From the NCBI GenBank assembly GCA_965198065.1, contig CBDAON010000003.1:32001-96000 (forward strand): a DNA stretch of 64,000 nucleotides, written 5' to 3'. The DNA is from Longimicrobiales bacterium (GTDB lineage: Bacteria; Gemmatimonadota; Gemmatimonadetes; Longimicrobiales; Gaopeijiaceae). Below the pieces are notes generated by a model. It saw nothing but the letters and a program-made list of their open reading frames with translations, ran no database searches and was not told the origin of the DNA. A program made the position numbers and the translations under genes. Below are positions 9,708 to 31,932 of the stretch, piece after piece; position 1 is the stretch's first letter, and each line of letters opens with the position of its first letter.

Positions 9708-11774
<2,067 letters not shown>

Positions 11775-21739: not shown

Positions 21740-22108
21740 TTGCCCGCGACTTGGCGGAGACAGGCCAAGGCGCTCCGCCGGTACGGGGGCGAGACTCCGG
21801 CCGTGGCGCTCGAGAGTTGCGCGGCCGAGCTCGAGACCACGCTCCGGGAGCGGGACGAAACCACCCTCTCCCTGACGGAGGCCGCCAGGGAGAGCGGCTA
21901 CTCCGCGGACCACCTCGGCCGTCTCGTCCGCGACGGTAAGATCCCTAACGTCGGAAGGCCCGGCGCGCCCAGGATCACCCGCAGGCACCTCCCCCGGAAG
22001 CGAATGGCCCAAGTGCCCGCCAATCCGCCGCTGGTCAAGAAGCCTTCCCCACGCCAGGTTTCAAACGCGCAGATCGTGCAGTCCATCATCGAGAGAGGAA
22101 TCGAATGA
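21740..22108 (+). CDS. HTH DNA-binding protein, excisionase-like
   Basis: LSLTEAARESGYSADHLGRLVRDGKIP; overlaps the integrase start (ATGA). Confidence 0.7.
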   Translation: MPATWRRQAKALRRYGGETPAVALESCAAELETTLRERDETTLSLTEAARESGYSADHLGRLVRDGKIPNVGRPGAPRITRRHLPRKRMAQVPANPPLVKKPSPRQVSNAQIVQSIIERGIE

Positions 22109-23268
22109 TGGCACGCACGAAACGAAGCCGGCGCAGCTATGGCACCGGCGAATGGGGCCGGAACCGGGTACGGGTCTTCCCGGATCCCAAGACCGGCCTG
22201 TTCCAGATCGAGTGGCGCGAGCGTGGGCGCAGGCTGAGCCGGTCGCTCAAGCACCGCGACTGGGCTCGGGCGAAGAAGCAGGCGGACGAGCTTGCCGCAG
22301 GCTTCGCCGGGCCGGTGATGGAAGGCAAAGCGGAAGCCGAGCCCGAGCCGCTCACTCTGGAGACGCTTTTTGACATCTACGGTGAAGAGGTGACGCCCAC
22401 CAAGCGTGGGCAGTCGCGGCTGCACGACAGGGCCGCGACGGGGATGTTCCTCGGTTGCTTCGGCAGGGACCGGAAGCCCGCAACGCTCTCCCAGCGCGAC
22501 TGGGACCGGTTCATCCGAGAGCGTAGGGCGGGCAGGGTTGGCCCGAGCGGCAAGCTGGTATCCGACCGGATGATCGAACGGGACCTCAAGTTCCTGATCG
22601 CGGTCCTCAACTGGGCCGCAAAGTCCAGGGACGAGCAGGGCCGCCTGCTTTTGGAAGCGAATCCCCTGAGAGGACTGAAGACGCCCAAACAGAAGAACCC
22701 GGCCCGAATCGTCCTGGCCGAGGAGGAGTACCAGGCGCTTCTACGGGTGTCCCGGCAGGTCGACTGGCGGTTCCGCGTCGCGCTCGTCCTCGCCCACGAG
22801 ACGGGACACCGCATCGGCGCAATCCGCAAGCTCTGCTGGTCGGACATCGACATGGAGGGCAGAACCATCCGCTGGCGCGCCGAACACGAAAAGTCGGGCT
22901 ATGAGCACCGGACACCGGTGACCGCCGAGGCGCTTGCCGCCCTGGAGGAGGTGCGAAAGAGGAATCCCGGTATCGGGCACGCGCCCGTGCTGCCCTCGCC
23001 GCAGGATCGCTCGAAGTGCGTGGGCTCCTGTCAGGCGTACGGGTGGTGGCACAAGGCGGAGGGGCTCGCGGGGCTTGAACCCAAGCGTGGGAGAGGCTGG
23101 CACTCCCTGAGACGAAAGTTCGCCTCCGACCTCATGGACCAGCCGCTCAAGGTGCTCTGCGAACTCGGCGGCTGGAAGGAGGCCAAGACGGTGCTGCAGT
23201 GCTACCAGCGGGCCGACGAAGGGCAACTCCGGAAGGCCCTAGATCACCGCCGCAGAGTTCGCGCCTGA
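22105..23268 (+). CDS. Tyrosine recombinase/integrase
   Basis: Catalytic TGHRIG (R), GWHSLRRKFA (H-x-x-R), LGGW and CYQ (Y). Confidence 0.92.
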   Translation: MMARTKRSRRSYGTGEWGRNRVRVFPDPKTGLFQIEWRERGRRLSRSLKHRDWARAKKQADELAAGFAGPVMEGKAEAEPEPLTLETLFDIYGEEVTPTKRGQSRLHDRAATGMFLGCFGRDRKPATLSQRDWDRFIRERRAGRVGPSGKLVSDRMIERDLKFLIAVLNWAAKSRDEQGRLLLEANPLRGLKTPKQKNPARIVLAEEEYQALLRVSRQVDWRFRVALVLAHETGHRIGAIRKLCWSDIDMEGRTIRWRAEHEKSGYEHRTPVTAEALAALEEVRKRNPGIGHAPVLPSPQDRSKCVGSCQAYGWWHKAEGLAGLEPKRGRGWHSLRRKFASDLMDQPLKVLCELGGWKEAKTVLQCYQRADEGQLRKALDHRRRVRA

Positions 23269-23321
23269 GCCCAATCAGCGGGAATCAAACGGCGGGAATC
23301 CAGTCCGAAATGCCCGTAAGT

Positions 23322-24488
23322 TTAATTACCCCAAGCAGATGCAAACCTGTCGACTTCTGCCGCCTCGACCCTGTTCTGTACCACATGTGCGAGGGCCGCT
23401 TCGATGACCTCGCGGGGATGATCCGTTTCCTCGGCCGCCCAGTCCCGGAAACTGGACCTGAAACCGTGTGGAACGGCCGCGATCCCATGCTTCCGGAACA
23501 TCCGGCGCAGTTGCTTCTCCTCGAGCTGCTTACCGACTCGATTGGGAAACAGATACGGACTGGTTCCCTTCACCAGCGTCCGTGCCCCGTCCAGAATCTC
23601 CAGTGCACGACCACACAGCGGGACCCGGTGCTCGCGGTTCGCCTTCGTCCGCCTGGCCGGGACAGTCCACACACCCTCGTCCCGATCAATCTCGGTCCAC
23701 TCCGCCCACCGCACCTCACCCCATCGTGCCGCCGTCAGCACCAGGAACTCGAACGCCAGCCGGACGGCCAGCGGCACCGTTGATGCCCGCGCGGTCTGGA
23801 TGGCCGCGGCCACCTCTCGATGCGGCAGCGCCCGCATGTGCTGCACGACGTCACGCTGGGGACCCAGGACCGGGTCGATCCGGTTACAGGGGTTGTCGAT
23901 CCGGAACTCCATCGCCACCGCCCACTCCAACACCGCGCGGATGCGCTGCCGCAACCGCCGGGCGGTGTCCGCCTTCGTGTGCCAGATGGGAGCGAGGATC
24001 TCCAGCACGTCGGCGCTAGTGACCTCCGAGACCGGCATCTTCCCGATGCGCGGGAAGGCGTACCGCTCGAAGGTCAAGATCCACTCGCGGCCGTGCACCC
24101 GACTTCGCCAGCCGGCTTGCTTCTGTTCTACTACACGCGCGGTGGCTTCGGCGAAGCTCGGTACGCCCTGCCTACGACGCTTCTCGGCAAGCGGGTCGCC
24201 GCCCTAGCGGGCCAGCTTACGGTTGGCCAGCGCCTTTTCCCGGGCCTCGGCGAGGGAGACCAGCGCGACGCTGCCGAGCCCGAGCTCGCGGCGCCGACCC
24301 CGGATGACCAGGCGCTGAATCCAGCTTCGGGTTCCGCTTGGCTGGACGAAGAGGTACAAACCGTTGCCGTCCGCGTGTCTTCCAGGCGGGGCAGTGCGCA
24401 CGAAGGCGGCCGACAGGGCCTTGTCTGGATGGCGGCCCTTGGGCTTGGTTTTCCGCGGCGGAGTGGCCTTGTTCGTTACAGTAACCAT
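23322..24488 (-). pseudogene. P4-like integrase (arm-binding domain) with an in-frame TAG at 24204-24206 and a truncated C-terminus
   Basis: HADGNGLYLFV...LGLG...SLAEARE; TAARWGE, HGFRSSFRDW, EAALAH; both ORFs lie in the same frame. Confidence 0.88.
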
Positions 24489-24636
24489 CCCCGCATAATA
24501 TAGGGGATGGAGGCGGATATCAATGGATGTTGTGAGCGGAGTGCGTTGCTAGTCTATGCTCGTAACTTACTGTTATAAAAGTCAGTTATGGACTTAACTG
24601 CGAACTGTGTACTTGACGCAAATACGGATACCTTGA

Positions 24637-25056
24637 ATGGGTGACAGACCGGCGCATCCACAGGTTTGGGCAAGAGTGAACGCCCATGTAGATGAAGGTG
24701 TGGCGGATCTCATATCCGCCCTCTCAAGATTCAAGGGCCTACGTACCCTCGAAAGCTGTCAGGGTGAGCCAGACGGTGCGGCCTGGGCATGCTTCGTGGT
24801 GGGAGCAAACGTGGGGTGGAGGCCGCTAGCGGATCTCGTGTTGGGTTACCTGGGACCGGCTTTGGCCTCAGACCTTGGAGACATGGTGGACCTTTCGATT
24901 CACGCTACGGAAGCGGGCGGGGCGCAGGGAGAACTCACGGTGCGCTCGGAAGCGATGAGCGACACCGTGAGCCTCCTGCTCACACTATCGGCTGATTGGC
25001 AGCCTAGAGCGGCTTACCAAACGTGCGAGTGTTCTTGTGACACGTCTTACACATAG
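24637..25056 (+). CDS. Hypothetical cargo protein
   Basis: 139-aa ORF with VDEGVADLISAL...TLESCQG motif, just inside the left TIR. Confidence 0.65.
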   Translation: MGDRPAHPQVWARVNAHVDEGVADLISALSRFKGLRTLESCQGEPDGAAWACFVVGANVGWRPLADLVLGYLGPALASDLGDMVDLSIHATEAGGAQGELTVRSEAMSDTVSLLLTLSADWQPRAAYQTCECSCDTSYT

Positions 25057-25234
25057 CCAACAGGTTTCCGAGGCCGTCACCGCCACCGCGGGTGCGGTGG
25101 TGGGCATGCCAGTCGGAACCGTGCAACCCGTGCTTGCAACGACCAGTGTGGTGCGAGCACACCGACATGGTGCACTCGCAACGTCCGCCTGCACGAATAA
25201 AGAGAAGGCGTCGAGTATCATTGGAAACAGCCAT
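25004..25234 (-). CDS. Small HNH endonuclease-like protein
   Basis: RAGGRCEC...HAHH...GGGDGLGNLLAMCKTCH; GAGG RBS before MAVSND. Confidence 0.8.
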   Translation of the reverse strand: MAVSNDTRRLLFIRAGGRCECTMSVCSHHTGRCKHGLHGSDWHAHHRTRGGGDGLGNLLAMCKTCHKNTRTFGKPL

Positions 25235-25405
25235 TGTAATGCGTCCTCGATTTGGAAAATGAATGTGAATGAAAGCACGTTTCAAAACGCCTTCTTAAAC
25301 GACGTTTTAAACGACGCATTAAATGGCGTTTTAAGAGCACTTTCTTTTCGTGATTCTTTTCCTCGACGCAATTACACGATATACTTTATCTGTAAATGCG
25401 TGAGG

Positions 25406-25508
25406 TGCGGACGGCCGGAGTCGAACCGACACGGGGCGTCAAGGGTCCGAGAGAACCCGCCCCACCAGCTTCCAAAGCCAGCGTGTTTACCAGTTTCGCC
25501 ACGTCCGC
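25406..25508 (-). tRNA. Atypical tRNA-like gene: Leu-type body, UGG (Pro) anticodon, extended variable arm
   Basis: GCGGACG/CGTCCGC-A acceptor; D-arm GCGAAACTGGTAAACAC; CTGGC-TTTGGAA-GCTGG anticodon arm; GTCGG-TTCGACT-CCGGC T-arm; 103 nt. Confidence 0.85.
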
Positions 25509-25570
25509 CAAACGCCTGGGGGCAGCCTTACGGCCACCCCCAGGAAGACCCCGGTTACGGGGTTAGGATT

Positions 25571-25582
25571 TTATGGCGGCAT
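25571..25582 (-). other. Minigene Met-Pro-Pro-stop with a strong Shine-Dalgarno
   Basis: GAAAGGAG-ATCACC-ATG CCG CCA TAA, followed by two stem-loops. Confidence 0.65.
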
Positions 25583-25662
25583 GGTGATCTCCTTTCTGGC
25601 GTGTCAGCGCCGGTTAGGGTGAGTGGTGCGCCCCCATCGTCGGAAACGGCGGTGGGGGTCTG

Positions 25663-26127
25663 CTATTCTAGTCCACCGATCTCCTCTTGCTGTGCACCTC
25701 CCGGCCTCGTCCATTCTCGGAGACCGTATTCGCCGGTATCAACCCGAATGAACTGGCCACCCTCCTTGTGTGATCGTCGGAGCATAGCGCCGAGGCTGTT
25801 GGCTAACTTCCTTCGGCCTTTCGCATACGGAAGTCCACGCTTCAGTAATGCGTCGGCGATATCTCGTGGTTGCATCGGTTGGCGGACCTCAAGCAAGCAG
25901 GACTCAGCAACCCCCTGTAGGGTAAGGCGGGGATTACTGTACCGACCGCCGTTAATAGACGGGGGTGCCTCGGACGCCTCCTCGGTTATGGTAGCCGGTG
26001 CTTGCGCTTCGGGTTCGCTCAGGTACTCGAACAGTATCTCTCGCGTGTTGCGGAGCTTGCGGGCGCGAGCTTCGTGGAATTGGATATCGCGATCAAGTCG
26101 CTGGATTAGGTCCATGTCGCTGGGCAT
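25663..26127 (-). CDS. Winged-helix (HARE-HTH-like) DNA-binding protein with an N-terminal coiled coil
   Basis: LEVRQPMQPRDIADALLKRG...FIRVDTGEYGLREW. Confidence 0.7.
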   Translation of the reverse strand: MPSDMDLIQRLDRDIQFHEARARKLRNTREILFEYLSEPEAQAPATITEEASEAPPSINGGRYSNPRLTLQGVAESCLLEVRQPMQPRDIADALLKRGLPYAKGRRKLANSLGAMLRRSHKEGGQFIRVDTGEYGLREWTRPGGAQQEEIGGLE

Positions 26128-26269
26128 GTTCGCATCCTACCCTAAAGGGGTTAATGTGACCGAAGTTAACGGCAGCGTGCGATCTTTGCTAGGGTGTAGT
26201 GAGGACAACGCGACGACAGGCCGATCTTGCTTGTGGAATCAGTGTTAATCGTATTATAGGAGGACCCAT

Positions 26270-26461
26270 ATGGAGGCCGAAGAAAAGCCGACACCGGACA
26301 ATAAGAAAACCGGTCCTGACGCAGATCGCGTGAAGCTCGAAGGAGACTGGGAGGATGCGGTGAAGAAGGCCCTGAAAAAGAAAAAGCCCCCCGAGGGCTG
26401 GCCGCAGGAGGACGAGCAGAGCGGGGAGTCTGTCAGTGATTCAGGATCGGACAGAGACTGA
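26270..26461 (+). CDS. Small charged hypothetical protein
   Basis: AGGAGG RBS; RVKLEGDWEDAVKKALKKKKPPEGWP. Confidence 0.65.
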   Translation: MEAEEKPTPDNKKTGPDADRVKLEGDWEDAVKKALKKKKPPEGWPQEDEQSGESVSDSGSDRD

Positions 26462-27265
26462 GTGCCAGCCACCTATCGAATGCGTGTGTGCCCTTACCAC
26501 TGGCCCGAGTTGCTGGTCGAAGCGCTTAAACCGGGGGTTGTTCATGCGCCTGTACCAGTAGATCGCTGCGATGGTTCTGCCGATACCGTCTGCCGCTTGA
26601 ACCCCATGATACCACTCCGACGGTACGAGGAGGGGGATCTCTGTAACGCGAGCGTCGGCTGTCCGAAAAACAGGGTCCGAGTAAATAAGACTCTGAGCGG
26701 ACGCAAGAACGCGCGTATTCTGAGTCTCGGTGCGGCGGTCCATTATCACCACCCCCCGGCCCACACGCGATCCTGCTTTGTCGTTAAGATATTTTTCAAA
26801 CCTACGCAGTGTACTTTGCATGAGGCTGGTATAAAGCCCGGAGTAGGAGTGGTTCGCACGAGTAGAGTCTTTCTTGACTCCGTTTGCAAAAACGGCGCCA
26901 CCGCACGAACCAACCAACCCGAGCACCTGAGATATAAAGCGGATGTCGCGTCGCGTTCTGAGCGTCTTCGCTTCAAAGCGTTCCGGGCGGATACCGTGCA
27001 AGGTCTTGGCGCGAGATATTTCCCTGCTATAGAAACGACACTTCAAGCGGAAATAGGACCGGTCGAAGTCACGCCACCGTTCGCCAGGAATGACAAATCC
27101 CGCAAAACCGAAAAGCGGGTGGTGCTGGTGTCGCGGATCGGTGGGATCATAGGGGCCTGGATGACCGAATTCATCGAGGTAGAGAAGGTACATGGAGGCA
27201 TGCCCCGGTACAAAATACACAGAGCCCGCGCCGAAGCGCGAGCCCTGGGGAACTGCTTGACCCAA
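26441..27265 (-). CDS. DUF3800-family protein (probable start MYLLYLDE at ~27193)
   Basis: YLDEFG N-terminal motif and GVQAAD C-terminal motif. Confidence 0.85.
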   Translation of the reverse strand: MGQAVPQGSRFGAGSVYFVPGHASMYLLYLDEFGHPGPYDPTDPRHQHHPLFGFAGFVIPGERWRDFDRSYFRLKCRFYSREISRAKTLHGIRPERFEAKTLRTRRDIRFISQVLGLVGSCGGAVFANGVKKDSTRANHSYSGLYTSLMQSTLRRFEKYLNDKAGSRVGRGVVIMDRRTETQNTRVLASAQSLIYSDPVFRTADARVTEIPLLVPSEWYHGVQAADGIGRTIAAIYWYRRMNNPRFKRFDQQLGPVVRAHTHSIGGWHSVSVRS

Positions 27266-27384
27266 GCATCCGGAGACACAAGGGCTGGCAGTATTACAAC
27301 AGATTGCTATACACAGTATAGCCTGTCAAGGATCCCCTTTGAAGGACTCCTGGGTACTCCTGGGTACTCTGGGGGGAACTTGGT

Positions 27385-28365
27385 TCATGGATGACGATAC
27401 ATGAGCCGCTTCCCCTCGGAGCCCCGGATAGCGGTCTTGATCCTTTCTCCGTCGTCAATCTTGCGAGTATTCCACCGAAACTCGAACTCGGACACGTAAC
27501 GGTGCAGATGCTCTTTGCTGACGTGGTGGAAGGTCCCCATGACGCCCCTCTTGAGAAGGGCAAAGAACCCCTCAACGGTGTTCGTTGTGGCGAGCACGTC
27601 CCCGTCCATGCGTGCATACTCGTTCTGCGAGTGACGAACCGTGTGATGCCCGTTGGCAAACTCGCGTCCCACTGGTATGTAATGCCTGGCTTCGTCAGTA
27701 TGGAGCCGAGCCGCTTCTGGGTCCACGTTCTCCCGAAGGTTGCTAGCGAGGTTCGCAGAGGTCACGTTCGTTACGACCTTGGCGCGCGCCTCTCCGTCCC
27801 GCTCGACGATGGCAATGACGGGCGTCTTGTTGTCCATACGGCGAAACCCACGCGGACGACGCTTCCCGCGCACCGAGCGGGGGCGGATTTTTCCACCGAC
27901 GAAAGCTTCATCCGCCTCGACATCGCCAGTAAGTGGACCGCCCGTGTTGGCTGCACCATTCATCGCGTATCGGACCCGGTGCATGAGGAACAAGGCGCTC
28001 TTGTACGTGAGGCCGGTTTGCCGTTTGATCTGCAAAGCGGACACGCCCTTCTTGCTGGAGCACGCCGCCCAAAACGCAAAGCACCAATGCCGCATGGGAA
28101 TCCGGCTGTCCTCCATGATGGTTCCGATGCGGACCGTGAACTGACGGGCGCACCCACGGCACCGCCAGAGGTACCGGGCGTTCCGCTCACCGGTATTCCG
28201 ATCCTTCATCATGTAGACATCGACATCGCCACAACGGGGGCACGACGGCTCCCCCTCCCAGCGCATGTCTTCGAGGAATTCGACCGCTGTGTCTTCGTCG
28301 GCACAGGCCATTGGGATGGCCCCGACGATGTCCGATTTATCGCCCGCGATCTTCGACATTTTCAC
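27385..28365 (-). CDS. IS1595-family transposase
   Basis: Zn ribbon CPRCG...CRGC, KGVSALQIKR, VEADEAFVGG, LHTDE, TNTVEGFF, YVSEFEFRWN. Confidence 0.95.
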   Translation of the reverse strand: MKMSKIAGDKSDIVGAIPMACADEDTAVEFLEDMRWEGEPSCPRCGDVDVYMMKDRNTGERNARYLWRCRGCARQFTVRIGTIMEDSRIPMRHWCFAFWAACSSKKGVSALQIKRQTGLTYKSALFLMHRVRYAMNGAANTGGPLTGDVEADEAFVGGKIRPRSVRGKRRPRGFRRMDNKTPVIAIVERDGEARAKVVTNVTSANLASNLRENVDPEAARLHTDEARHYIPVGREFANGHHTVRHSQNEYARMDGDVLATTNTVEGFFALLKRGVMGTFHHVSKEHLHRYVSEFEFRWNTRKIDDGERIKTAIRGSEGKRLMYRHP

Positions 28366-28487
28366 TCACCTTTGGAGGCTTGAATTCACACTCTAAAGAT
28401 AAGGGATGTACGTGTTTGCGTCAAGTATCTAGTTCCGACTTAACTGGACGATACTGTACACCGGTCCAGATAGTCTGCCCATTCCTG

Positions 28488-28943
28488 GGTCGTGCGTGGC
28501 TGCCCGAGCACCCGGCACGCTCTCCTCTCCGACGCCCCGAGCTGCTGACGTACACGCACCACACAACGTCGTCGGCCCTCGGGGCTCAGAAGTTTCCCTT
28601 GGCCGCTTCCTCCACGATCAGCTTGTCCAGTGTCAAGTCCGCCACTGCTCGCTTCAGGCGCCCGTTCTCGCGCTCGAGCTCCTTCAGGCGCCGTGCCTGG
28701 CTCACCTTCATCCCGCCGTACTCCCGCCTCCACCGGTAGTACGTCTGCTCGGTGATGCCGAGCTCCCCCCTGATCAGCTTCACGGATTTGCCGCCGGCCA
28801 GACCGACCTCTGCCTCCCGCACTGCAGTGATGATCTGCTCCGGAGTGTGTCGCTTCCTTCCCATCCTGACCTCCTCGCTGAAAAGCTTCGGACCAGGTCG
28901 ATCCTAACATTGCACCTGGTCTCGTTTCAGCGGGTCAGGTCAG
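28488..28943 (-). mobile_element. IS3-family left-end fragment (orfA 28586-28864 and start of orfB)
   Basis: MGRKRHTPEQII...TYYRWRREYGG...AAKGNF; IRL TGACCTGACCCGCTGAAACGAGACCA. Confidence 0.9.
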
Positions 28944-29203
28944 GTTCGTTAATTGATACGGTCACCTTGCCCGTCCGGCCGTGATACGTAAGCAGCCGGT
29001 TTGGCTCACGAATGCCGGCGACACTAAGCATGAAGTCGGTGACGGCTAGGGAAGCGACGACGCCGTTGGCATGCATCGGCACGCAAGATTGGAGGGATTC
29101 GCCGAGTCACGGCCCGCGCGTGCGACACGTCGACTCCGCCGCGCACGGAGGCTGAACCCGAAGCCGATATACGGGGGACATCAAGATTCCCGTAGACCGG
29201 GGC

Positions 29204-29917
29204 TCAGATCTTGCGTCCTACCAGGAGAGTGTGTGGGCGATCCTGCCAGATACAGTCAGCCTGGAATTTGGCTTCGCGCATGGCCGCGAGTTCGTCGTCG
29301 ACTGAAAAGTAGGTGTCCTCCGCCGACCACGCGGCGAAGTGCTCATAGGCGCGCTGTTCGTCAATGCCGCACGACACCAGGTGGGCGGCCCATCGACGGT
29401 ACGACTGCTCGCGCGCCCCCGCCGGGTGTGCGCTGATGGCCACGTCGGTGTTCACGAAGACGCCACCGGGGCGGAGCACCCGGTAAATGCGTGTATAAAG
29501 CGTGAGTTTGCGTGCCATGGTGGGAACGTGGTGCAGAGCCAGGGCCGTAGCCACGGCGTCACACGTGGAGAGTGGCGCCTCGAACGACCGCCGGCGGACA
29601 CGAGCGCGGGTCCCAAATCGCTTGAGCCGAAGGCGCGCCTGGGCCAGCATCTCAGGATCGATGTCGATGGCTTCAACGGCACCGACGCGTTCATGGTCCA
29701 GCATCGCTTCAGCCAAGGCGCCCGTTCCCGCGCCGAGGTCAAGCACCAGGGTTGGGCGAACACCAGCGATTTCGTTGGCAGCCCTCGCCAAGCCTTCTTC
29801 GTAGCCTGGGATGAACGTGCGGATGGTCTCGTCGTAGGCATCAATCTCAAGGCGAAGATGATGGCGGACAGAGTGGCTCATCAGCTGATCGTAGGTCAAT
29901 GGTTCATAGACGCTCAC
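29204..29917 (-). CDS. Class I SAM-dependent methyltransferase
   Basis: VLDLGAGTG, ALALHH, LRPGGVFVN. Confidence 0.9.
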   Translation of the reverse strand: MSVYEPLTYDQLMSHSVRHHLRLEIDAYDETIRTFIPGYEEGLARAANEIAGVRPTLVLDLGAGTGALAEAMLDHERVGAVEAIDIDPEMLAQARLRLKRFGTRARVRRRSFEAPLSTCDAVATALALHHVPTMARKLTLYTRIYRVLRPGGVFVNTDVAISAHPAGAREQSYRRWAAHLVSCGIDEQRAYEHFAAWSAEDTYFSVDDELAAMREAKFQADCIWQDRPHTLLVGRKI

Positions 29918-30464
29918 GTGCGGAGCTTCGACAGCGGTTACGTTACGCAGTCACCACAGCATCATGAAAAACGCACTAGACGTGGCCATGCGAAAGGCCT
30001 GAGCGCCTCTCCCCCAGAATCGTCGATTCTTGGCCCCGGCGGGGGGCCGACGTTGCACTCCGGCCATCCCGCCTTTGGGGTCGCTCAGGATCAATGGTTC
30101 CCTCCGTGAAGGGGTAAAACCTTAGTCGGAAAAATGATCGATAAGTCCCGTTTATCGCGCAGGATACGTCCCCCACCTCCTCACCCCACCGTCCAGCCAT
30201 GAGGCCACGCGGGCGTCTCTAGGAGCCCCCGAAGAGTTCTGAGGACACGCGAAGCGGTCCGCCGAACCCAGCGGTTTCTGGCCCCCCACGATCCATCCGT
30301 CGCCTCGCGTCCTCAAGCAATGCTCGCCTACAATCCAAAGAATATGACCGAAGACGAACGAGAACACCTGCTCAGCACAGCTTGGACCCGCTGGTGGAGT
30401 TGCCGCTCGGACGGACATCTCCTAACTCTTTGTATATCAGGTGTTCTTGGGCTTTTATGGAGCG

Positions 30465-30821
30465 CTACAGAACGTCAATAGATGCGTCGATCTCACCGAA
30501 CACGCCGTGCGCAATGAGTTCTCTCGTGTTGGCGACCGCAGCTTCAGGTTCGTAGCCGTCGTCGCGCACCAGAAGCCGGAGGGAGCGACCGTGCACGCCA
30601 CCCTGCTGGTTGGCTTCCTCGAAGGCCGCGCGGATGCCCAGGTTCATGTCCCGGCCCAGTTGGCCCGCGGGACCGTTCAGCGCAGCCGACTGGCCGAAGA
30701 CGATGGAATCCGGGAATACGCCCTCCCCGCCGGATCCCCCTTCCTGGGCGCGGCCGCCACCCGCCGGCAGGATGCCGCCGGCCACGGCCAATGCGCCAAG
30801 GGCGAAGCGGTAGCGGCCCAT
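30465..30821 (-). pseudogene. Truncated ABC/periplasmic substrate-binding protein (Leu-binding-like)
   Basis: Signal peptide, IVFGQSAALNGP...GGVHGR...DDGYEP; ends abruptly. Confidence 0.8.
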
Positions 30822-31932
30822 CACGGCGAATTTCCCAGGTACCGGATGGTCAGGCAGGTGATATCGTCGGACTAGGGTGCTTCGCCCGCGTGTTCCTGCA
30901 CCGCCTTGACCACATGGTGGTTGATCGCCTCCGCGCTCGACCCCGCGCACTCCGCCAGGACCCCGTCCAACTTTTCCTCTCCGAATTCGACGCTGTTTTC
31001 GTCCATTGCTTCCGTGACGCCGTCCGTGTAGAGGAAGATGGCGTCACCCGGATCCAAGTGTACGGATCCGCTCGGGAAGTCGAACGACGGCACGACCCCC
31101 AGAACCAGTCCCGAATCGCAAACGAGCTGCTGAACCTCGCCGGAAGCCTTGACCACGAAGGGAAGATTGTGCCCGGCGTTCGCATAGATGGCTTGCCCGG
31201 TTGCGGGGTCGAACTTGGCGTAGAACACCGTGACGAACATCGCCTCCTTGTTCTCCTCTCCGAGGAGCCGATTGACCTCCTCGAGGCACTTCGCGGGGTC
31301 GCTCTCCCCAATGGCGGTCCCCTTCAAGAGTGTCCGGCTTACCAGCATGAAGAAGGCGGCCGGCACACCTTTACCGGATACGTCCGCCACCACGACCCCC
31401 TTCCGTCCGTCCTCAAGTTGGAAGAAATCGTAGAAGTCACCGCCGACATATCGAGGGCCGGAGTCATCCGGTCCTGCATCCGGGCTGCCACCCCGAGCTC
31501 CTTGCGTAGGGCCACGAGTTCGTCTCTCGACCGAAGCGCATCCCTCATCACCCGCAGGTGTTCGAGGGTCTTCGCGATCGTGGTGTCCAGATCGTCGAAA
31601 TCGATCGGCTTGGTCACAAAGTCGAACGCGCCACGGTTCATGGCGGTCCGAATGTTCTTCATGTCCCCGTACGCCGTGACGATGACCGCACGCAAATCGT
31701 AGTTCAGCTGGTTCAACTGCCCGAGGAGGGTCAGTCCGTCCATCTCGGGCATGTTGATGTCCGAGAGCACCATGTCCACGTCAGAGTGGGTCCCGAGCTG
31801 CTCCAGGGCCTGAACTCCATTCTGGGCGAAGACCAGATCGAACTCGCCGGAGCGGACCCGGCGGCGGAATTTCTGTCGGAGTAGCAGCTCCAGATCAGGC
31901 TCGTCGTCTACTACGATAATCTTCGGCATCAT
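30821..31932 (-). pseudogene. Response regulator-PP2C/SpoIIE (RsbU-like) phosphatase with an internal deletion/frameshift and an in-frame TAG at 30872
   Basis: Receiver VVDDE...SDINMP...KP; GGDFYDF, VADVSGKG, YTDGVTEA, (TAG)SDDIT. Confidence 0.85.

Follow-up and report, generated by a model that had tools for sequence, protein, structure and literature searches.

A Pro-Pro-stop leader upstream of a leucine-type tRNA(UGG) in an IS1595-family transposon: a candidate RNA toxin with a tRNA antidote

Introduction

Why should a transposon carry a transfer RNA (tRNA) gene, and why should this gene be preceded by an open reading frame (ORF) so short that it consists of little more than the codons that the tRNA reads? 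The question is raised by a locus of a Longimicrobiales bacterium (Gemmatimonadota; assembly GCA_965198065.1), located in a stretch of 64,000 nucleotides of contig CBDAON010000003.1 (positions 32,001 to 96,000, referred to here as the window; positions given below are those of the window). Inside a cargo transposon of the IS1595 family, a Shine-Dalgarno (SD) sequence and a mini-ORF encoding Met-Pro-Pro are followed by two hairpins and by a tRNA gene with the anticodon UGG. An original prediction, made from the letters of the window and a list of its ORFs, had proposed that the mini-ORF could be a tRNA-sequestering toxin with the tRNA as its antidote, or a sensor of proline decoding. We have examined how often this arrangement recurs, what kind of tRNA is involved and which of the possible roles fits best. 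As judged from the comparison of related loci, the transposon tRNA has a conserved partner in this Pro-Pro-stop leader.

The leader and its structure

The SD, the ATG-CCG-CCA-TAA frame, the two hairpins and the tRNA-like gene were all found on the minus strand as they had been predicted, in the following order:

25631..25658, minus strand: hairpin CCCCCA...TGGGGG, after the stop codon of the HARE-HTH gene and just upstream of the starts of the RNA-library contigs
25589..25594, minus strand: Shine-Dalgarno sequence AAGGAG, with a 6-nt spacer to the ATG
25571..25582, minus strand: mini-ORF ATG CCG CCA TAA (Met-Pro-Pro-stop)
25548..25563, minus strand: hairpin 1, ACCCCG-TAAC-CGGGGT, which begins 7 nt past the stop codon
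25515..25544, minus strand: hairpin 2, 13 bp with a GTAA loop, which ends 6 nt before the tRNA
25406..25508, minus strand: class II leucine-type tRNA of 103 nt (Rfam), anticodon UGG at 25474-25472, anticodon loop TT-TGG-AA
25405..25628, minus strand: region matched with 0 differences by complete contigs of two metatranscriptome libraries (224 nt in one; 208 nt, 25416-25623, in the other)

Hairpin 2 is joined to the tRNA gene by the linker CGTTTG. The region (266 nt) folds better than 200 of 200 shuffled sequences (z = -3.4), and the leader has a fold energy of -39 kcal/mol, with two GC-rich hairpins downstream of the ORF. Two of the three sense codons of the mini-ORF are for proline, an enrichment like that of the leader ORFs of attenuators, and in the ORF list of the window no longer frame is open through it. 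No mutually exclusive stem-loops could be discerned by eye, either in our copy or in consensus folds; a four-region attenuator could not be drawn, and a terminator scan gave no call on the minus strand between leader and tRNA. A pairing of the minigene with the 5' acceptor strand of the tRNA, which appeared in the minimum free energy fold of the whole region, was dropped, as by eye it is not conserved in the related loci L041, L066 and L060. No second copy of the module was found in its own genome. The 301-nt module gave only short chance matches in the genomes of 60 relatives, and the segment 25000-26200 (1,201 nt, module included) had no match among 72,556 plasmids.

Recurrence of the mini-ORF

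One of the points named beforehand on which the original prediction could fail was the conservation of the order SD, ATG, codons and stop in homologues. We have searched for it upstream of 67 leucine-type tRNA genes with anticodon UGG or AGG (the 59 of the family described below, 7 others and our own), counting as a mini-ORF any ATG-started frame of at most 8 codons that contains Pro-Pro, is preceded by an SD-like word and lies within 250 nt upstream of the tRNA. Such a frame is present upstream of 9 of the 67 tRNAs, where about 0.16 would be expected (Poisson P ~2e-13); the nine represent some 6 independent lineages, and counting only these 6 the probability is still ~2e-8. The background is low, with 12 such ORFs in 1.25 Mb over both strands of all loci (0.0024 per 250 nt), of which 8 are the family mini-ORFs themselves, 3 belong to one locus and 1 to another. 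The own genome contains 28 in 6.1 Mb. The enrichment is seen only when SD and ATG are required: a strict start-(CCN)1-5-stop pattern without an SD is not enriched, being present in 2 of 123 upstream regions and in 12 of 400 random windows.

The encoded peptides are MPP in our copy, MPPP in L041, MPPPKS in L066 (the cultured Mesorhizobium mediterraneum USDA 3392, with its leader followed by the tRNA), MKPP in L060, L137 and L025, MRKPP in L043 and L085, and MQRPP in L015. A tenth mini-ORF, MCSARGPP*, precedes a member from a viral contig (19 viral members were examined). Hence the frame ends in Pro-Pro-stop in 8 of the 9 cases, or 9 of 10 with the viral one. The last Pro codon is CCA in 7 cases, counting the MRPP* variant mentioned below, and CCT in 3-4. 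CCG and CCC, which together account for 73% of the Pro codons in this genome, never occupy this place. SD sequences in the relatives are of the GGAGG type. The mini-ORFs come from Alphaproteobacteria, Acidobacteriota, the lineage of the window, metagenomes and viral contigs, and all ten lie on the same strand as the tRNA, 45-164 nt upstream of it. By type of variable arm, they precede 6 of 22 tRNAs with a long arm and 3 of 45 with a short one. Upstream of the four transposase-linked leucine-type tRNAs with the anticodons AGG, UGC, UUA and GUC no SD-led mini-ORF was found.

The finer structure of the leaders is also preserved. In every one of them hairpins begin 0-10 nt past the stop codon, and the tRNA is preceded, at a distance of 5-13 nt, by a GC-rich hairpin with a tetraloop. 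In four alphaproteobacterial leaders this tetraloop hairpin keeps its pairing through compensatory changes, and a conserved CTTCC after the stop codon pairs with the SD. The closest comparison is offered by a contig from a marine metagenome that has 6 differences over 226 nt. Here an insertion of 3 nt converts the frame to ATG CGA CCG CCA TAA (MRPP*), keeping SD, frame and stop, and the tRNA has a G at the position of a D-stem mismatch in our copy. The recurrence in several phyla, the insertion of 3 nt that leaves the frame intact and the bias of the last Pro codon to CCA or CCU bear out the idea that minigene and cognate tRNA are a coupled, non-accidental module of the IS1595 element.

The two contigs from the metatranscriptome libraries consist wholly of leader and tRNA, joined on one molecule, which is suggestive of a discrete leader-tRNA transcript. 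In libraries X3 and X4 the rest of the transposon has no cover, and this uncovered part is not evidence. Runs X5 and X7-X15 contain only small shares and do not enter into these conclusions.

A leucine-type tRNA with a proline anticodon

The tRNA-like gene with a UGG anticodon turned out to be a tRNA by the usual standards, with 41.4 bits for Rfam model RF00005 (gathering score 29; a 31-nt insert is placed in the variable region) and a cloverleaf kept by covariation across its family. ARAGORN called no tRNA in the window, probably due to the 35-nt variable arm. Elsewhere in the genome (G000, C4:918986-919658) the same program reports a second tmRNA, permuted ('tmRNA*'), 673 nt long and with a tag of 24 residues, which is probably a false call.

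A way to assess which amino acid this tRNA is likely to carry is to compare its identity marks with those of the two candidates. On the leucine side we found A14, A15, G18G19, A20a, U48 (forming the A15-U48 Levitt pair), the discriminator A73 and the class II shape. The bases A14, A15, G18G19, A20a, U48 and A73 are described as leucine identity elements in Escherichia coli (PMC9976931). The D arm, GTGGCGAAACTGGTAAAC, is the same as in the tRNA-Leu genes of the host when aligned with the genome's own tRNAs, the geometry is the normal 7/5, and the 35-nt variable arm is made up of a 6-bp stem on the outside, a 3-bp hairpin on the inside and a bulge on the 3' side. With R1, a covariance model built for the family, our tRNA scores 77.6 bits, within the range of the five true tRNA-Leu genes of the genome (76.9-81.1). 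The anticodon, UGG, is not one of leucine (NAG or YAA). On the proline side G35, G36 and A73 are present, and the other marks are absent: the first pair is G1-C72 and not C1-G72, the Levitt pair is A15-U48 and not G15-C48, and the variable arm is 35 nt long instead of short. The leucyl-tRNA synthetase (LeuRS), according to the same source, does not need the anticodon arm (PMC9976931), and because LeuRS ignores the anticodon the tRNA is predicted to be charged with leucine. The chromosome already has normal tRNA-Pro genes with the anticodons UGG, GGG and CGG, together with five tRNA-Leu genes.

In order to find relatives, one genome per prokaryotic species was scanned with a degenerate pattern (the tRNA-Leu D arm plus TGG at the anticodon); the scan covered 120 stretches of ~270 estimated. 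Among 126 distinct matches, 59 were intact cloverleaves with the anticodon UGG. The other 67 do not belong to this family. They are either tRNA-Leu genes with an interruption directly after CTT, which by eye resembles a group I intron, or arrays of tRNA-Leu 5' halves. Such arrays were seen in contigs of Ruminococcus/Lachnospiraceae metagenome-assembled genomes (L047, L072-L074, L092 and others), where the 5' half runs through the anticodon loop (...GGATTTGGGCAG...) and is repeated ~100-700 nt apart without a 3' half.

The 59 genes come from Acidobacteriota, Planctomycetota, Verrucomicrobiota, Alphaproteobacteria, Chloroflexota, Gemmatimonadota and others. In an alignment of 60 sequences (the 59 and ours), 98.6% of the cells are paired. 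Double changes were counted in 374 cells and are distributed over 20 of the 23 pairs; shuffling gives 99, and none of 500 shuffles attained the observed value. The genes had been selected for at least 11 of 12 pairs in the acceptor and T stems; the anticodon, D and variable stems were unselected, and these are paired in 97.7%, 99.4% and 95.5% of the cells, respectively. A73 is present in 59 of 60 and U48 in all 60, and C1-G72 is found in 6 of 60. The bases of the D loop were partly imposed by the search pattern, yet they recur in the transposase-anchored sample (see below). The variable arm has either 13-19 nt or 26-36 nt.

The association with the transposon is also a family trait. An IS1595 transposase, 30-73% identical to ours, is located within 1.5 kb of the tRNA in 32 of the 59 loci (26 of 41 where the flanks are complete, 6 of 18 where they are shorter). 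Transposase and tRNA are enclosed together by inverted repeats in L136, with the same ACTTGACGCAA core as ours, and in L082, with a similar core (ACTTGACAAG). From viral contigs there were 22 pattern matches, 19 of them cloverleaves and 6 with a transposase nearby. An anticodon-blind sample was obtained by alignment of the transposase, which gave 80 metagenome loci (of ~47,000) that were then searched with R1. The leucine-type class II tRNAs in it have the anticodons UGG (6), AGG (1), UGC (1), UUA (1) and GUC (1). Proline anticodons thus dominate among the transposase-linked leucine-type tRNAs and are not universal.

Several loci of the survey have peculiarities of their own. A second, irregular tRNA-like gene lies directly upstream of or beside the leucine-type tRNA in L041, L049, L082, L098, L132, L134 and L141, so that these elements contain tRNAs in tandem. 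L140 has a serine-type body with a GAG anticodon, and L202 a leucine-type body with the ochre-reading anticodon UUA. In L013 and L130 the tRNA is closely preceded by a long hairpin with a conserved loop, GAATCCTTGGAGGGRAAT, within which CTTGGA resembles the anticodon loop of the tRNA.

Natural tRNAs whose anticodon disagrees with their body are known from other bacteria. In Streptomyces and Kitasatospora, the tRNA-ProX family has proline identity with alanine, threonine or asparagine anticodons and a dedicated paralogue of prolyl-tRNA synthetase. Our case has in common with it a natural tRNA built for one amino acid that reads the codons of another, and differs in that the identity is of leucine type, the anticodon is that of proline and no synthetase gene is nearby. 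Irregular tRNAs and allo-tRNAs, as well as tRNA polycistrons, have been described in Acidobacteria and soil metatranscriptomes, near transposon-related and toxin-antitoxin genes, and the supplement includes 7/5 species of tRNA-Leu type with the anticodon UUA (Mukai et al., 2017; PMC5389517). Those tRNAs share with the present family the good fold, an anticodon at odds with the identity marks and the links to mobile genes, and their UUA species are as in L202. In contrast, that supplement has 0 UGG anticodons, no IS1595 and no leader mini-ORF (PMC5389517).

Proline codons of the transposase

The transposase of our element has 5 CCA codons among its 11 Pro codons, compared with a CCA share of 11.6% in the genome, and among these are P18 and P326, of which the latter is the final codon (the 3' end of the gene reads CAT CCA TGA). 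The proline aligned with P326 is encoded by CCA in 19 of 19 transposases linked to a tRNA(UGG). In 15 transposases whose fetched flank lacks a tRNA, the codons at this site are CCT (10), CCG (3) and CCA (2), and the difference in CCA, 19 of 19 versus 2 of 15, gives a Fisher value of 1e-7. At the site of P18 the figures are 12 of 13 versus 2 of 6, and CCA makes up 59 of 201 Pro codons in the tRNA-linked transposases compared with 76 of 637 in those without a tRNA in the fetched flank. These rows are mutually related, so the tests overstate their independence. The single element with a tRNA(AGG) has CCT at the site equivalent to P326. None of the 238 Pro codons of the tRNA-linked transposases falls on a column conserved as leucine, which gives no indication that CCN takes the place of a required leucine.

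Comparison with known minigenes and leader ORFs

The layout of the leader had been likened to the RNA toxin CreT, and this likeness is strengthened by a recent preprint in which an SD, a mini-ORF ending in Pro-Pro-stop and a hairpin make up a toxin. In the type I-F CRISPR-Cas system of Pseudomonas aeruginosa, the 'proline-codon toxin' CreT is described as an SD followed by a 15-nt mini-ORF, with two Pro codons and immediately a stop, and a GC-rich hairpin, and it is bacteriostatic (bioRxiv 10.64898/2026.06.02.729485, 2026 preprint). Each of the three elements, including the two Pro codons, is reported to be required for a drop of >5 log in colony-forming units. The RNA inhibits in-vitro translation in trans, the hairpin acting via RNA stability, and CreT is silenced transcriptionally by the CRISPR-like CreA RNA with Cascade (bioRxiv 10.64898/2026.06.02.729485). 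The features in common with our leader are the canonical SD, a minimal ORF ending in Pro-Pro-stop and the GC-rich hairpin downstream; family members with ATG-AAA-CCG-CCT-TAG are likewise exactly 15 nt long. The differences are in the context, since CreT belongs to cas loci while the present candidate toxin is part of an IS1595 transposon and is followed by a tRNA for its own codons. Neither a CreA partner nor a cas locus was found: the module is surrounded by transposase, DUF3800 and HARE-HTH genes and by small ORFs, no repeat array is present in 22000-31000, and Rfam recognized in the whole window only parts of group II introns and this tRNA.

Minigenes can also act through a single tRNA species, as exemplified by the tRNA-specific effect of the bar minigenes of phage lambda. 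Tiny CreT toxins that sequester a tRNA have been described in haloarchaea and bacteria (PMC8501985). With both our leader shares an SD, a start, a couple of codons, a stem-loop and a predicted action through one tRNA species. Those minigenes rely on rare codons for Arg or Ile, through which a tRNA of the host is depleted, and are not known to have a cognate tRNA gene adjacent to them.

A third precedent is provided by mgtP and mgtL, the proline-codon leader ORFs of mgtCBR and mgtA in Salmonella; mgtP is described as controlling transcription by attenuation according to Pro-tRNA levels (PMC3641672). As in these leaders, a short ORF is present whose Pro codons would report on proline decoding. 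However, mgtP is longer, has defined alternative stem-loops and precedes protein genes, whereas here the downstream gene is the tRNA for the same codons and no alternative pairing was found.

Possible role of the module

We read the minigene, the hairpins and the tRNA(UGG) as one conserved RNA module of an IS1595-family transposon that may work as a Pro-Pro-stop RNA toxin with a tRNA antidote, making the host keep the tRNA functional; we would assign to this reading a rough probability of 0.35. RNase P would cut at the 5' end of the tRNA and release a leader RNA of ~120 nt ending in the 13-bp hairpin, which would be protective. A hairpin just before the tRNA, with compensatory changes in relatives, is what would be expected of a 3' protector after such a cleavage. 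The strong SD would load ribosomes, which would make Met-Pro-Pro and, on reaching the stop codon, come to a halt with their P site occupied by peptidyl-tRNA(UGG). The tRNA of the element, predicted to be charged with leucine, would compete for CCA, and either the leucine inserted there would remove the Pro-Pro context or the trapped tRNA pool would be refilled, leading to termination. A cell that loses the function of the tRNA gene would be exposed to the arrest, and the leader would in this manner guard the tRNA to which the fixed CCA codons of the transposase appear matched. Post-segregational killing of the classical type is unlikely because toxin and antidote are on one transcript and the tRNA, as a long-lived molecule, should outlast the leader RNA; a guard that penalizes the loss of tRNA function fits better. 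In a stricter version, only the element's own leucine-charged tRNA(UGG) could defuse the arrest, forming an RNA-only toxin-antidote pair with a missense tRNA, and the host would be forced to keep a tRNA that rewrites CCA, a private decoding rule that the mobile element would impose and police. This version we consider doubtful.

Several observations speak against the toxin and antidote. The shared transcript just mentioned leaves the guard logic as the only one that fits. The mini-ORF was found in only 10 of 86 family loci, and for this reason it has to be regarded as accessory. The CreT precedent is a preprint on another organism with a different antitoxin, and the toxicity of our leader is a prediction. 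The RNA-library contigs have low depth (3.6 and 6.5), belong to one study and are by themselves no proof of transcription. In our copy the tRNA has a C11-A24 mismatch in the D stem, the only one among the 60 aligned sequences, which close relatives lack (25484 T>C), and the leader-bearing tRNA of L137 has a proline-type C1-G72 acceptor end and could be charged with proline. Finally, all the mini-ORFs are directly upstream of the tRNA and share its strand, an arrangement for which a sensor acting in cis is no worse an explanation.

Such a sensor would be a feedback leader in which the decoding of the Pro codons, above all of the CCA before the stop, sets the output of the downstream tRNA. A ribosome standing at Pro-Pro-stop would be 0-10 nt from the first hairpin, which is thereby inside its footprint, and would alter folding, termination or processing. 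Once enough tRNA is made the stall would end, keeping a potentially mistranslating tRNA at a tolerable level whatever the host. The fixed position and strand of the ten mini-ORFs, the CTTCC-SD pairing of the four alphaproteobacterial leaders, the linker CGTTTG after hairpin 2 (a weak terminator-like tail), the RNA-library contig that spans leader and tRNA, and the attenuation of mgtCBR by a proline-codon leader ORF, mgtP (PMC3641672), are all in line with it. The lack of alternative stem-loops discernible by eye and the empty terminator scan on this strand point the other way, as do the length of the ORF, which with 3-5 codons is far below that of known attenuator leaders, the spacer between leader and tRNA, very variable in length and content, and the 76 of 86 family members that have no leader. 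We regard this feedback, the main rival of the toxin and antidote, as possible, if tentative.

It is also conceivable that mini-ORF and hairpins have no link with decoding and serve the upstream gene or the handling of the RNA, as a terminator or 3' stabilizer of the winged-helix mRNA after RNase P cleavage, or as a ribosome standby site. A gene of winged-helix type does often end just upstream, and the GC-rich hairpin before the tRNA is present also in members without a mini-ORF (L013, L130, L063, L068, L143). This would leave unexplained the Pro-Pro-stop endings (9 of 10), the A- or T-ending last Pro codon, the strong SD and the in-frame insertion, and appears improbable. Even less credit can be given to the mini-ORF being a chance frame or the relic start of a lost gene. 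Most relatives have no such ORF, G+C-rich DNA is rich in CCN and the strict pattern lacking the SD was not enriched; against this, the excess found when the SD is required (on nine tRNAs or on six lineages), the recurrence across lineages, the 3-nt insertion that maintains frame and stop and the lack of a longer open frame make the explanation very hard to sustain.

The transposon and its surroundings

The whole module is located inside a transposon, as had been predicted. IS1595-family 'transporter' insertion sequences with passenger genes were reportedly treated by Siguier, Gagnevin and Chandler in 2009. In such elements terminal inverted repeats enclose additional genes along with that of a DDE transposase, which has a zinc ribbon at its N terminus, and ~8 bp of the target are duplicated. 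The present element has the following parts:

24600..28436, both strands: IS1595-family cargo transposon of ~3.84 kb, delimited by inverted repeats, a flanking direct repeat and an empty site
24600..24626, plus strand: left inverted repeat, core ACTTGACGCAA, preceded by the 9-nt direct repeat GACTTAACT at 24591-24599
28411..28436, minus strand: right inverted repeat, with the direct repeat GACTTAACT adjoining it at 28437-28445
27385..28365, minus strand: IS1595 transposase, 326 aa (Pfam DDE_Tnp_IS1595, 1.6e-35, and Zn_ribbon_IS1595)
26441..27265, minus strand: DUF3800 cargo gene (Pfam PF12686, 1.4e-08)
26270..26461, plus strand: tiny conserved protein with the motif GPxPExLK..W..KKPPEGWP, shared by at least 14 related IS1595 loci
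25663..26127, minus strand: HARE-HTH winged-helix protein directly upstream of the module (Pfam PF05066, 1.1e-06)
25004..25285, minus strand: small Cys/His-rich ORF downstream of the tRNA, HNH-like by eye, without a Pfam family

The inverted repeats are 26-27 nt long, with the 9-nt direct repeat on either side, and the element carries in addition an ORF of 139 aa. An empty site was found on the chromosome contig, where both flanks are contiguous (C4:1364073-1364145). In DNA run X1 the full element is on one 3,941-nt contig, and the joint of the empty site (24590->28437) is present as well. Transposase type and zinc ribbon, terminal repeats, target duplication and empty site are thus all those of the IS1595 family. 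In common with its 'transporter' members are the transposase type, the inverted repeats, the target duplication and the cargo genes; the difference is in the cargo, since in literature searches no tRNA or mini-ORF was found described for this family.

A search of 5.8 billion proteins with the HARE-HTH protein returned only itself, and the winged-helix proteins upstream of the tRNAs do not form one detectable family, given that an iterated hidden Markov model reached 4 of 70 loci and clustering by BLAST gave no such family. The gene downstream of the tRNA had been called an HNH gene. Its Cys/His pattern is visible by eye only; Pfam gives the ORF (25285-25004) no family at E<=0.01. It has no counterparts in related loci, and the suggested control of it by the minigene is not indicated because the gene is not conserved in the tRNA family. 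Between it and the tRNA, at 25290-25365 (minus strand), there is an A+T-rich region with repeated palindromes of the type AAACG(T/C)CGTTTAA that could be an operator or promoter region.

The transposon itself sits within another, multi-copy insertion sequence (flanks 24400-24599 and 28437-28600). The contigs of run X1 give this host insertion sequence a depth of ~790-2700, compared with 8.7 for the transposon, and uninserted copies exist on the chromosome contig. At 23322-24488 (minus strand) the domains Arm-DNA-bind_3, Phage_int_M and Phage_integrase of a P4-type integrase are spread over two ORFs, suggesting that the gene was broken by a frameshift or a stop, and a second integrase gene is found at 22105-23268 (plus strand). 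The tRNA was considered as attachment site of the broken integrase (24488-23322) and rejected: the end of the transposon separates them, the integrase is outside the element and the tRNA is therefore not its attachment site. Further away in the window, Rfam identifies group II intron domains on the minus strand (9708-11748), RF00029 at 9708-9858 and RF02003 at 11538-11748.

Implications

In agreement with the original prediction, which knew of no described system with such a pairing, the literature searched (bioRxiv supplements were outside the search) contained no IS1595-borne tRNA, no leucine-type tRNA(UGG) and no mini-ORF paired with its cognate tRNA. Our results suggest that IS1595 transposons with leucine-type tRNAs bearing proline anticodons are a widespread and undescribed family. 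The leader, if it acts as we propose, would provide a handle on this family, making a natural and mobile mistranslation from proline to leucine directly testable with minimal parts of ~220 nt. It would connect the recently described proline-codon RNA toxins with mobile elements that lie outside CRISPR loci and, be it a toxin with its antidote or a feedback, it would be the first such system in which a tRNA acts by decoding the codons of the toxin itself.

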